Assembly: GCF_057098645.1 (NCBI RefSeq)
Contig: NZ_JBXSPU010000002.1
DNA from: a plasmid
Direction: 5' to 3' (one strand)
DNA length: 64,000 bases
The position numbers were made by a program. Each line of letters starts with the position of its first letter. Position 1 is the stretch's first letter. Positions 1 through 12,000 of the stretch are shown piece after piece.

Positions 1-3000
1 CGGAGACTCTGCGTGTCTGGGTTCGCCAGCATGAGCGGGATACCGGGAGTGGTGATGGTGGACTCACCACCGCTGAACGTCAGCGTCTGAAAGAGCTGGA
101 ACGTGAAAATCGTGAACTGCGCCGCAGTAACGATATCCTTCGCCAGGCTTCCGCTTATTTTGCGAAGGCGGAGTTCGACCGCCTCTGGAAAAAATGATGC
201 CACTGCTGGATAAGCTGCGTGAGCAGTACGGGGTCGGACCGCTATGCAGCGAACTGCATATTGCCCCGTCAACGTATTACCATTGTCAGCAACAGCGACA
301 TCATCCGGATAAACGCAGTGCCCGTGCGCAGCACGATGACTGGCTGAAGAAAGAGATACAGCGCGTATACGATGAAAATCACCAGGTATACGGTGTGCGT
401 AAAGTCTGGCGTCAGTTGTTACGGGAAGGTATCAGAGTGGCCAGATGCACTGTGGCACGTCTCATGGCAGTTATGGGACTTGCCGGTGTTCTCCGGGGTA
501 AAAAGGTCCGTACGACCATCAGCCGGAAAGCCGTTGCCGCAGGCGACCGCGTAAACCGTCAGTTCGTGGCAGAACGACCTGACCAGCTGTGGGTGGCTGA
601 TTTTACTTACGTCAGCACATGGCAGGGCTTCGTCTATGTGGCGTTCATCATTGATGTGTTTGCCGGATACATCGTGGGGTGGCGGGTCTCATCGTCCATG
701 GAAACGACATTCGTGCTGGATGCACTGGAGCAGGCGTTGTGGGCCCGTCGGCCGTCCGGCACAGTCCATCACAGTGATAAAGGTTCTCAGTATGTATCAC
801 TGGCCTATACGGAGCGACTAAAAGAAGCAAAACTGCTGGCATCAACAGGGAGTACAGGTGACTCGTATGACAACGCGATGGCGGAGAGCATCAATGGTCT
901 TTACAAAGCGGAGGTAATACACCGTAAGAGCTGGAAAAACCGTGCAGAAGTGGAACTGGCCACACTCACGTGGGTGGACTGGTATAACAATCGACGATTG
1001 CTGGGAAGGCTGGGTCATATCCCTCCGGCAGAAGCAGAAAAAGCTTATTATGCTTCCATCGGAAATAATGATCTGGCAGCCTGAGTTCACAGATAAAATA
1101 CTCTCCAGGAAACCCGGGGCGGTTCACCCCTAATTCAACTAATTGGAGGCATTACCATGCATTAGTGCAAGCGCCTTGTGGATTCTTTTGCTAATGACGG
1201 AAACATATTGTACAATATTGCATTTATCCCTCAATAAATAAATGAGTTATCAGATTGCAAAAATCTGTTATCAAACTAATTCAAATAAAAAGAGATTGAT
1301 ACGACCAACGTACACAAAAATTTTCGATATTCGAACTAAATAACAGCTCCTAATACCGCTACACTTTAGCTATCCAGTCTGCGCCTCAGAAATGGACGAT
1401 GCCGTTGAAGGACTGGTGTATGGCAATGAGCCGCTTTATTATCGAATTCGGTGACCGCCTGGACGGTCACTTCGGAGAAAAGGCATTTACACAGCATCCT
1501 AAACAGGTTCAGCATAGGTGATATACCGCCTTTTCATTTTCTTCTCCATTATTTATAAGGGAGGTGTATTATTATGCAATATTATTGGTTTTACCCATTG
1601 TTTTTTTCAGTTCATGAATGTTTGCAAAAAAAATAAATGAACAACAATTTTATGTATTTAAAATAAATTAATTTTACTTCTGTAATGGTGTCATGATTAG
1701 CAGCTTTTTAAACTAATATCGACTTTCAATAAATAAGGACAGGTAATGGACAACAAAAATATCTGAACCCGGGTGAGATTCATAAGTTGCACAGTGCTGT
1801 CTTTAAAGTGCCACACCCGGAACGTAATCACTGCCTGCTCCTTATGGGGTATCTTCATGGTGTCCAAGCATCAGAGTTATTAGGTATAAAACTGTCTGAT
1901 ATTGATTTGCAGGCCGGTAACCTGAATATCCGGCGGCTCTAAACGGTTTGTCAACTCAGCCCCTCGGCTGAAACAGGAGGTACAGTCCATTCGTCGCTGG
2001 CTGAAACTTCGGGATGAATGGGTAGAAGAGGGATATGAATGGTTATTTAACCTCTATGGCAGGTCTGCTACAGGTATTACTGTTGTTCTGGGGGGGCACT
2101 GGTGTGGTTAATATCTACGATGCAAGAGATTCTCACGATGGCCCGGTCCATCAGTGCATGCGGCGCGATATTGTGCGAGTATTTTTCAGGGGGAGTGGTA
2201 TCCGGATGCAGAAAATTCCGCTACTCGACTGGTTTTATGCAATAAATCAGTATGATAATCTTCTGATTTTTTACTGAGGCGGATATCTCTCGCTGTGTTT
2301 ACTGAAATTGCGGTATTCTGTTTTTTCTGAAAAACAGAAAATCTGATTAAAAAGAGCATATGCGTTAAGGGAAATTTAAGTTCTGGTTGATTAACTGATA
2401 AAAATATTAAAAAATCCCTGTTGTCGGTAATCTCCGGACCATTCCGGGATTACACAATAATATCACCATGTGTGATATCTATGGATCCTCACTGTTGTTT
2501 ACGCGAGGATATTTTCAGAATGCTTAACAGACGATAATTTTTTATGTTGAATGCAAGGCATCTTCCCGTACTGATGTATCATCATGTCAGTCGTTGTCCG
2601 GGGCTTGTGACACTCTCACCTGAAACATTTTGTGAACAGATGAAGTGGCTCGCAGATAATAACTGGCGGACGGTAACATCTGCTGAGCTTGAATATTTTT
2701 ATCAGGGGGGAACGCTTCCACGAAAGAGTGTCATGCTCACATTCGATGATGGTTATCTTGATAACTGGCTCAGAGCATGGCCGGTCCTGAAGGAATATAA
2801 CCTTCATGCACATATTTTTCTCATTACGGGGCTGATTGGTAAGGGAAACGTACGTAGCAGGCAGGAGCAGGAATATTCTCACCGCGACTGTGAACGGTTG
2901 ATTGCCGATAACCGTTCAGATGAGGTCATGCTTCGCTGGTCTGAAGTCCGGGAAATGCGTGATTCCGGACTGGTTGAATTTCATGTGCACACCCATTCAC

Positions 3001-9000: not shown

Positions 9001-12000
9001 TACGAATCGCCCGCTGACGGACTTCGGGGGAAAAACGAGTATTTTTAGTCATCCTGTTTACCTCTTTCTCAGGGAGTTTAGTCTCCAGGATTTCCGGGGC
9101 GGTTCAGGTATCCTGAAATAGCCCGCTGCACGGAGCGGGAGTTTGCGACCATTCTTGCCGGTATCAGCGCCGGCGGCATGTACTGCCCGGAGTGTGGCAC
9201 GGTTCACTGGCCGGACGGAGTCCCCCCGCCCTTCTGATGCTTCCCCGTTTTGCCGACATTTTTCAGCAGGGAAACCGCTGGCTTAACTGGCTGGAGAAAC
9301 AACCGGAAGGTTCTGTGCGTCCGGTGGTCATTGAGTCGGTGACAAAAATCATGGCATGCGGAACCACGCTGATGGGGTACACACAGTGGTGCTGTTCATC
9401 TCCGGACTGTTGCCACACAAAAAAGGTCTGCTTCCGGTGTAAAAGTCGCTCCTGCCCGCACTGCGGAGTGAAGGCTGGCGCACAGTGGATACAGTATCTG
9501 CTGAGTCTGGTTCCCGACTGTCCGTGGCAGCATATTGTGTTCACACTTCCCTGCCAGTACTGGTCCCTGGTGTTCCACAACCGGTGGTTACTGGCAGAGA
9601 TGAGCCGCATTGCTGCGGATGTGATACAGGAAATCTGCCGCCAGGCAGATGTGGTGCCGGGGATATTCACGGTGATCCACACATGGGGACGTGACCAGCA
9701 GTGGCATCCGCACATTCACCTGTCGACAACGACCGGCGGCGTGACATCAGACCACACCTGGAAAAACCTTCATTTTTACGCCCGTAAGGTGATGAGTATG
9801 TGGCGTTACCGGATAACGCAGTTACTGTCACGGAAATATCCGGACCTGGTGATACCGGATGCGCTGGCAGCAGAAGGAAGCAGTAAACGGGACTGGAATC
9901 GCTTCCTGGACAGTCATTACCGGCGGGGCTGGAATGTCAACGTATCCCGGGTGATGGATAACGCCACACATGTGGCGGTGTACTTCGGCTCTTACCTGAA
10001 AAAACCGCCGGTGCCGATGAGCCGTCTGGAGCACTATGCTGGTCAGGATGAAATTGGTCTGCGTTACAACAGTCACCGGACAAAACGGGAAGAATACCTG
10101 GTGATGAGTGGTGATGAGTTTATGGAAAGGTTCTCCTGGCATGTGGCGGATAAGGGGGTTCCGTGGGAATTTCTGCGATAACACCCGCTAAGCGATTCCT
10201 CCCTGACGGAAATCACTTGTTTTCCGTCAGGTCCTGCAGTTGAAGAAAATTGAATCCATAAATCTGTGATTTTTTGCGTGACAAACCCTGTCGGAATGAG
10301 AAACTGTACGGAAACTTCAATTTTAAGGTTTGTCGTACATGTTGATTGGTTATATGCGGGTATCAAGCAATGATGAACGTCAGTCAGTTTCTTTGCAGCG
10401 TGATGCGTTGATTGCTGCTGGAGTGGATCCCCGGCATTTACATCAGGATCATGCTTCAGGTGCTCGTGATAATCGCCCGGGACTTAAGTCCTGTCTCGCT
10501 GAACTTCGCGAAGGTGATGTACTGATAGTCTGGAAACTGGATCGACTTGGTCGTTCACTCTCACATTTGCTCCGAATTATTGAAGACCTGAAAATTCGTG
10601 GTATTGCTTTCCGATCATTGACTGAATCTATTGATACAACAACGCCACACGGCTCGTTCCTCTTTAACCTTTTTGGCACGCTCGCGGAGTACGAAAGAAC
10701 ACTTATCACAGAACGCGTTAATGCTGGTCTGGCTGCTGCTCTCCGGCGGGGGAGAAAAGGCGGAAGGCCACCGGCGATAGATGCTGAAAAGGTTGATCAA
10801 ATCCTCGCAGCTCTGGAAGGAGGTGCCAGTAAAGCGTCAGTATGTCGCGCATTCAGTGTGCCACGCTCAACGCTCACCGATACTCTACGACGAATTGGCT
10901 GGGCCGGACCTGGGGGGCGTAATCTGACAACGGATCAGAGCAATGTCATTTCTCGACTCTAAATCGTACGATACGCTTTTTGGATTACCTGAACTTTATG
11001 AGGATGCACTTCCCCGGTTTTCGCTCTCCTGCGAGGATATTGCATTCGCCAGAACTCATCGTCGATCTCATAACCGTCTGGGTTTTGCCATTCAGCTTGC
11101 ACTTGTCCGTGATCTCGGTCGTACACTGCGTGCAGGAGAGATTCCCCCGGAGGCTGTTATCACCGTTGTTGCGGAACAACTGGATATTGACCCTGCTGTT
11201 TTTACACTTTACGCACAACGTGAGGAAACCCGCCGGGAACATGCCCGCGAAATAGTTTCGGCTTTGGAGCTTCGTTCCGTCCGGAGTAGCGATTACAGAA
11301 TGCTCATTATCGCGGCTACACGCGAAGCAGCAACCACCGAAAAAGGACTGCCGATCACCAGAGCAGTTATCAATAAGCTGAAGGACCAGAAGTTACTTGC
11401 CCCTGCTCCGGCACAACTCATCCGTCTGGCAATGGCGGGCCGGGCGGCTGCCCGTCGCCTTTCTTATCGGGAACTCATCAGGGATCTGAAACCTTCATCC
11501 ATTAGCGCTCTCGAGCAGTTGCTTACCGAACGAGTCGGAGAAAAGAGCATTTTAGGCTGGATAGCTGAAGCGCCGGAAGGCGTGAAACTCAAGAATCTTA
11601 AGGGGTTAATTGCCAGGCTGGAGGTATTACGAACAGCGGCAATCTCCGATGAGCAACGTAAACGGATTCATGTAAACCGTTACGGTATTATTGCCCGGGA
11701 TTCTCGCGTTTTACATGCGCGTGAAATACAACGAATGGCATCCGAACGCTGTCATGCCACGCTGGTAGCCTTTGTTATTGAAAAGCAGGCAGCAATTACA
11801 GATCTGGCAATTGATATGTTCTGCAAATTGATTGGCAGCACGAGGCGCAGAGCAGAGATAAGCCAGAAAGAGCGTCGTCTGAAAGCCGCTGAAGTACTTG
11901 AAGTCGTAGCTCAGGATCATATTAAGTTGGGACGGGCTCTCCTGGCAGCACGTGACGGTAATACTGATATTGAATCTGTAATAACAGCATCACTCGGCTG

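Follow-up and report, generated by a model that had tools for sequence, protein, structure and literature searches.

The ecf operon, whose four genes serve the modification of lipopolysaccharide (LPS) and lipid A, is known from plasmid pO157 of enterohaemorrhagic Escherichia coli (EHEC) O157:H7 Sakai and EDL933 (Yoon et al. 2004, 2005, as reported in PMC2811833 and PMC2323221). Its thermoregulation and conservation are on record, and together with ehx it forms a conserved core module of EHEC plasmids (PMC2811833, PMC2323221, PMC12831630, PMC3893438); a curved-DNA thermoregulatory element, BNT2, lies upstream of the ecf promoter (PMC2811833). The locus described here, from plasmid contig NZ_JBXSPU010000002.1 (assembly GCF_057098645.1), was analysed within a stretch of 64,000 nucleotides, called the window. 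In the window, an ecf operon lies between two inverted copies of the insertion sequence (IS) IS629 and downstream of the remnant of an invertase gene. This remnant belongs to the same FimB/FimE subfamily as the recombinases of the switches fimB/fimE-fimS, fimX-hyxS and ipuA/ipuB-ipuS-ipuR-upaE, the last of them from uropathogenic E. coli CFT073 (PMC6083910). The window as a whole is a piece of the mosaic of a pO157-type EHEC virulence plasmid, with ecf, an espP-like SPATE gene, a toxB-like open reading frame (ORF) and the etp type II secretion cluster. Very probably, the segment is the ecf1-ecf4 operon of pO157-type plasmids embedded in layered mobile-element debris, in which the IS629 copies arrived later and form no composite transposon, and in which the recombinase is an unrelated fossil.

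The ecf operon and its boundaries

The four ecf genes are co-oriented and code for a CE4 deacetylase, a GT4 glycosyltransferase, a CptA-like phosphoethanolamine transferase and an LpxM paralogue (Table 1); the functions proposed for them in an earlier reading of this DNA (the sequence-only reading) agree with the domain and family matches. The same genes in the same order are described for pO157 in the reports cited above. The window is nearly identical to pO157 of Sakai (99.6% DNA identity over 6.3 kb, window 1126-7446 against 8837-15154 of L002), and this colinear stretch includes the DNA upstream of ecf1 together with the invertase remnant. Judging from domain content, Ecf2 and Ecf1 would add a sugar to the LPS core and then de-N-acetylate it, Ecf3 would add phosphoethanolamine, and Ecf4 may act as a second myristoyltransferase. 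For ecf4, we adopted the RefSeq start at 6356, taken from the related plasmid L001; the mechanically called ORF begins at GTG 6323.

Two more distant homologues help to delimit the operon. The chromosome of an E. coli strain from chicken (CP178694; L017, 9001-14032) harbours a complete four-gene copy, 91% identical to the window over 2301-7352 only. The homology begins at 2301, its proximal ~150 bp being ~90% identical. A plasmid of E. albertii (L003, 9001-12016) shares only coding parts, namely ecf1-ecf2 and lpxM at 78%; it has no ecf3, and its upstream region is unrelated. Since the chromosomal homologue aligns over 2301-7352 only and the upstream region of the E. albertii plasmid is unrelated, the functional ecf unit probably spans ~2301-7354, with four genes behind a promoter-proximal region of their own. 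The operon would be transcribed from this upstream region of its own and thermoregulated through curved DNA, as published. The chromosomal copy sits in an island beside IS3 and IS66 elements.

The AT-rich region reported upstream of ecf1 in the sequence-only reading is indeed there, with a GC content of 35-40% across 1200-1800. A crude curvature model with wedge parameters peaked at ~2408, only marginally above the 99th percentile, which is weak evidence. A promoter scan of 1127-2700 was uninformative (5 sites against 4.9 +/- 2.1 expected). The leader and promoter region at 2301-2560 folds better than its shuffled versions (z = -2.8) and contains a perfect 10-bp hairpin at 2316-2339. We do not claim an RNA element here, because conservation of this hairpin does not extend to the chromosomal homologue.

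IS629 copies around the operon

The most conspicuous structure of the segment is an inverted repeat with arms at 1-1126 and 7797-8922, which are 98% complementary (27 mismatches in 1126 nt). Both arms are IS629, recognizable by a length of ~1310 bp, terminal inverted repeats TGAACCGCCCCGG..., orfA and orfB with a DDE (rve) domain, and a frameshift pseudoknot. Two oppositely oriented copies, A (1-1126) and B (7797-9106), thus bracket ecf1-ecf2-ecf3-msbB2, as the sequence-only reading had stated for a segment 1-9107; its end needs correction by one position, as copy B stops at 9106. The inner ends of both copies are right inverted repeats (IRR), the outer ends left inverted repeats (IRL). Over the common length the copies are 97.6% identical, and the differences (27 of 1126 positions, 2.4%) cluster at 799-859.

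That the same IS occurs twice around a cargo, although the copies are 2.4% divergent, raises the possibility of a composite transposon, mobilized as a unit when the IS629 transposase acts at its two outer ends. Both copies appear functional (intact orfA/orfB, inverted repeats, apical loop-internal loop (ALIL) pseudoknots). Moreover, the whole block 1-9106 (IS629-A, ecf, an IS66 fragment, IS629-B) recurs at 99.5% identity in plasmids of O103, O121 and O45 strains, and the outer flanks differ among plasmids whose inner junctions are common: finO-side and cmi-ehx in CP148342, etp and cmi-ehx in pO103 (E. coli O103:H2 12009, NC_013354) and CP148351. The last of these also carries a left flank of the CP148342 type beside another IS629. 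In the window, the right outer flank is an IS91-family remnant, and the left one lies beyond the window.

The junctions themselves argue otherwise. IS629 normally makes target-site duplications (TSDs) of 3-4 bp, yet these were seen at 21 of 47 sites, with none at the other 26 (PMC3271280). None was found at any single copy (B CTC/GGT, C GTG/TTT; A TTC/CCC in L001 and GCT/CCC in L016), nor was any shared by the outer ends of the A-B pair (TTC against CAA in L001, GCT against CAA in L016). Both outer ends are IRL, and the copies have diverged as described above. We counted each junction separately in PLSDB (72,556 plasmids): copy A at 1127 was found in 34 records, 7796 at copy B in 20, and copy B at 9107 in 30. 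For comparison, ~494 PLSDB plasmids carry the ecf upstream region with the remnant, and 540 of the 5,426 complete E. coli genomes searched carry 2048-2543 (523 of them at at least 99% identity). Each junction is thus confined to 20-34 of the ~500 ecf plasmids, in unequal counts. Copy B is missing entirely from Sakai pO157, and ecf homologues elsewhere share only 2301-7352, whose limits do not match the IS ends. While the outer flanks do vary among plasmids, the inner junctions also occur apart from each other (34 versus 20 records); therefore, homologous recombination at IS copies explains the varied flanks equally well. Taken together, we regard the composite transposon as highly improbable, and movement of the segment as a unit, as envisaged in the sequence-only reading, finds no support, given the missing TSDs (singly or paired), the divergence of the copies and the position of the segment shared with the chromosomal homologue.

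The preferred explanation, with the IS629 copies as later arrivals, is based on comparisons among plasmids. As the sequence-only reading had anticipated, the IS629 arrangement does vary among related plasmids. Sakai pO157 has no IS629 downstream of ecf, whereas the window has the second copy at 7797; upstream, espP plus ~4.8 kb separate an IS629-like copy from the ecf upstream region in Sakai, whereas in the window IS629 abuts 1127. At the site corresponding to window 1123-1130, Sakai pO157 contains no IS and reads ...CTATTATACCCC..., and O157:H7 plasmids have neither of two IS629 insertions known from this site. The first is copy A. The second, oppositely oriented and 4 bp to the left (IS followed by TATACCCC), occurs in O145-type and other plasmids (102 PLSDB records; L014 11429, L015 784). 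The IS629 insertions at the left edge of the ecf module are independent events at a recurrent spot. We also considered an adjacent deletion from a Sakai-like arrangement, by which the window would equal Sakai minus 4.8 kb next to the IS629-like end. This was rejected: copy A shares only 96.8% identity with the Sakai IS, compared with 99.6% for the unique DNA, so independent insertion followed by recombination is at least as likely.

From these comparisons, the order of events would be that two IS629 copies arrived later and independently, marking recombination or deletion junctions, and the copies may supply portable homology for reshuffling of the plasmid backbone around a conserved ecf block. 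The variation of flanks fits homologous recombination between dispersed IS629 copies. It is illustrated by pO103 and its O103, O121 and O45 relatives, which have the same IS629-A/ecf/IS66 fragment/IS629-B block: in pO103, the etp cluster lies to the left and cmi-ehx to the right, while in the window the IS91-family remnant lies to the right and etp is ~40 kb away and inverted. The DNA left of copy A in pO103 maps to window 49168 onward, reversed, and is joined there to an IncFII RepA-like region. An IS3-family remnant (86% identical) at window 49764-50033 adjoins the etp cluster. Positions 9107 and 49161 share the 7-mer GGTATCC, probably by chance.

Inverted IS copies might also cause the intervening segment to flip by homologous recombination, leading to two plasmid isomers. 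Inverted homology of 1.1-1.3 kb at 97.6% would be an adequate RecA substrate, IS-related inversions have been reported among virulence plasmids of Shiga toxin-producing E. coli (PMC12831630), and etp and ecf are oriented oppositely in the window compared with pO103. However, the left flank of pO103 is joined in the window to the repA-like region and not to IS629. Furthermore, we constructed synthetic isomer junctions (outer-left flank, IS629 and the reverse complement of the inner flank of copy B) for the two known left flanks, of L001 type and pO103 type, and no record in either database covered them beyond 83-85%. Because the ecf promoter lies inside the segment, it is not obvious that an inversion would affect regulation. 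We therefore found no isomer for these two flank combinations that would substantiate the inversion suggested in the sequence-only reading, and consider such flipping unlikely. If an inversion had occurred in the past, TSDs might have been exchanged among the three IS629 copies of the window; a search for such swaps gave no match.

Some points weigh against the explanation of the segment as an ecf operon with later IS629 arrivals. i) Lack of TSDs is frequent for IS629 (26 of the 47 sites) and alone is no proof of rearrangement; with TSDs seen at only 21 published sites, this line of evidence is limited. ii) The left flank of copy A lies beyond the start of the window, and its own left junction is unread. 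iii) The isomer search covered only two of the possible junctions, and assemblies display the majority orientation, so that rare flipping within a population would escape notice. iv) The ecf promoter and BNT2 are not placed on window coordinates.

The invertase remnant and its source locus

The sequence-only reading had noted a frameshifted FimB/FimE-like recombinase gene upstream of ecf1. The family and the frameshifts were confirmed; what is left is only a 5' fragment and not a decayed full-length gene. The reconstructed peptide matches NCBIfam NF007370 (tyrosine-type DNA invertase, FimB/FimE subfamily) with E=3.7e-23 at 82 bits, below the cut-off of 221, and Pfam Phage_integrase with E=2.7e-10. 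As the profile match covers only positions 8-108 of 200, the remnant is truncated as well as frameshifted. Its intact orthologue P0001 (186 aa, 83% identical to the remnant) scores 246 bits against the same cut-off; the remnant aligns to it only up to 'EWLF' (codon ~102), and the catalytic C-terminal half is absent. The window remnant, which has three frameshifts besides, thus falls short of an intact tyrosine recombinase and its RHRY catalytic residues. A by-eye impression that the C-terminal half survives in 2100-2274 was rejected by alignment to P0001.

The origin of the remnant can be traced. Eight contigs (L005-L012) contain a chromosomal island to which positions 1509-2047 (540 bp) are 83% identical. 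The intact locus (L005 9218-18706; also L006-L012 and L018) has two divergent FimB/FimE-type invertases of 186 aa each. Directly after the second one, there is a perfect 16-bp inverted repeat, TGAACCAAAGTGTAAA / TTTACACTTTGGTTCA (L005 10567-10582 / 10796-10811). Between its arms lie 213 bp of AT-rich DNA, making an element of ~245 bp, and the extended left arm overlaps the stop codon of the invertase; further downstream are genes for an 803-aa autotransporter and then for a ~1700-aa inverse autotransporter. A similar layout is known from ipuS, which is 260 bp long and whose distal inverted repeat lies within ipuA (PMC6083910), whereas the repeats of the intact locus measure 16 bp versus 7 bp in ipuS, an inverse autotransporter follows, and no LuxR-type gene was called. 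Because this architecture equals that of ipuA/ipuB-ipuS-upaE, the source locus of the remnant plausibly had a phase switch, which may have served adhesin genes. The intact locus is thus a candidate ipuS-like phase switch. It is present in one of the 5,426 complete E. coli genomes, and none of the nine chromosomal loci (L005-L012, L018) has the element in a second orientation.

Could such a switch once have phase-varied ecf expression, with the remnant as its leftover? The remnant has the orientation of ecf1 and is found 500 bp upstream of it, and its intact orthologues adjoin an element bracketed by inverted repeats. In the intact loci, however, this element is located downstream of the invertase and upstream of the autotransporter gene. 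Homology to these loci ends at 2047, and the 16-bp repeat is absent from the whole window even with up to 3 mismatches allowed. Inverted repeats near 1500-2540, proposed in the sequence-only reading as former recombinase sites, did not stand out from chance: in 1127-2543, there were 7 perfect 9-mers compared with 6.15 +/- 3.1 in 300 dinucleotide shuffles, the longest arm being 10, and no inverted repeats bracketing a short promoter-bearing element were found beside the recombinase in the window. Every plasmid aligned to the window was colinear with this region, and no alternative orientation was seen. Finally, no remnant accompanies ecf in the chromosomal homologue or in the E. albertii plasmid. 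Compared with the ipu and fim switches, only 540 bp survive in the window, and these include neither a catalytic domain nor inverted repeats. An ancestral ecf switch is largely refuted, its probability being close to negligible. The hint at an ancestral invertible switch thus holds for the source locus, which has a switch-like element, and fails in its tie to ecf, as the element lies by the autotransporter genes and is missing from the window.

The remnant is without catalytic domain, recombination sites or ancestral tie to ecf. It was never part of the ecf unit, because the switch element is absent from the window and the chromosomal ecf homologue shares only 2301-7352. On the left, the fossil would have been cut by the IS256-family fragment; on the right, the cut would lie at codon ~102. 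It also carries the three single-nucleotide deletions. Sakai pO157 contains the remnant with the same lesions as the window. At identities of at least 80%, 494 PLSDB records match it; the close matches listed all fall into two parts, and among the matches listed no intact relative on a plasmid is nearer than 46% identity. Because Sakai shares the lesions and the close listed copies are all split, we infer that the decay predates the radiation of pO157-type plasmids.

A further step can be taken only tentatively. According to this proposal, 1509-2047 would be the fossil of an undescribed fim/ipu-like phase-variation locus, once present in the ancestor of all pO157-type plasmids and now intact only in rare chromosomal islands of E. 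coli and E. albertii; in addition, the AT-rich stretch at 1123-1127 would be a genuine IS629 hotspot that has repeatedly set the left edge of the ecf module. We hold these two statements jointly to be possible, at a confidence somewhat short of even.

Neighbouring elements

The coordinates of the segment are given in Table 1. The window begins inside copy A, which is therefore represented from IS position 185 on. The translation of the IS256-family fragment 1369-1524 yielded no Pfam match. The junction between the IS66-family tnpA fragment and IS629 (window 7447-7916) was also observed in several E. coli chromosomes, in some of them near ydfV/relBE; as it recurs in chromosomes, it is a travelling nested-IS unit.

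A Tn3-family element occupies window 10155-13945 and consists of genes for a resolvase and a 988-aa transposase between 38-bp inverted repeats. CP148351 has a copy with 100% identity that interrupts IS629 copy B and is flanked by a 5-bp duplication, TATTA; the window element sits in an IS91-family remnant and has no TSD (ATAAG versus TATGA). Further on, the gene for a 1327-aa SPATE-type autotransporter (Peptidase_S6) adjoins a group II intron reverse transcriptase/maturase gene (20088-25780), and the toxB-like ORF, 3009 aa long, is located at 34226-43255.

Table 1. Features of the ecf segment and the third IS629 copy, in window coordinates
Feature	Position	Strand	Description
IS629 copy A	1-1126	+	IS positions 185-1310; orfB 194-1084; ALIL pseudoknot 152-268; IRR end 1126; right flank CCC
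AT-rich spacer	1127-1368	.	colinear with Sakai pO157; left edge is the recurrent IS629 boundary
IS256-family (IS1414-like) fragment	1369-1524	.	84-90% matches to annotated IS1414 transposase stretches; also matches L003, L004
Partner invertase start	1509-1537	-	~10 codons (MKRRYIT...); cut off by IS256-family fragment; aligned to L005 9741-9778; translation of L005 9218-9778 compared
Divergent intergenic region of ancestral invertase pair	1538-1746	.	AT-rich, ~210 bp, 17-bp deletion; 83% identity to L005-L012
FimB/FimE-type invertase pseudogene, 5' part	1747-2047	+	~100 codons; ATG 1747; 1-nt deletions after 1750, 1939 and 1960; first in-frame stop 1765-1767
Filler	2048-2300	.	pO157-lineage-specific; no homology to L005-type loci or L017
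ecf promoter-proximal regulatory region	2301-2543	+	243 bp; phased A-tracts ~2316-2416; kept in chromosomal homologue L017
ecf1	2544-3365	+	polysaccharide deacetylase, Polysacc_deac_1, CE4; 273 aa; intact
ecf2	3365-4471	+	GT4 glycosyltransferase; 368 aa; intact
ecf3	4561-6282	+	CptA-type phosphoethanolamine transferase; 573 aa; intact; NF007933, 1062 bits (cut-off 404)
ecf4 (msbB2, lpxM paralogue)	6356-7354	+	332 aa; intact; TIGR02208, 420 bits (cut-off 336)
IS3-family fragment	7373-7446	.	end of colinearity with Sakai pO157
IS66-family tnpA fragment	7447-7796	+	cut by IS629 copy B; annotated as IS66-like TnpA in L013, L016
IS629 copy B	7797-9106	-	complete, 1310 bp; orfA 8726-9052; orfB 7839-8726; ALIL frameshift pseudoknot 8655-8771; flanks CTC/GGT
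IS629 copy C	45911-47220	+	third complete copy; 99.3% identical to B; flanks GTG/TTT

Conclusions

The segment is ordinary, and most of it was known before: published work covers the operon, how it is conserved among EHEC plasmids and the IS-driven mosaicism of these plasmids, and the exact IS629/ecf/IS629 arrangement is already in the literature and databases with pO103, sequenced in 2009. The data support neither composite transposition nor an inversion with a regulatory role. What the analysis adds is where the invertase fossil comes from and how it is built, a boundary at 2301 for the ecf unit, and a pair of IS629 insertions lying 4 bp from each other.

For ecf biology itself, these details are of little consequence. 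The limits of the functional unit, 2301-7354, should nevertheless steer work on its promoter and thermoregulation. The unannotated 'hypothetical' ORFs upstream of ecf1 in hundreds of RefSeq plasmids are now explained as pieces of an invertase pseudogene. Finally, the intact and apparently uncharacterised invertase and inverted-repeat locus beside adhesin genes is a candidate for phase variation.

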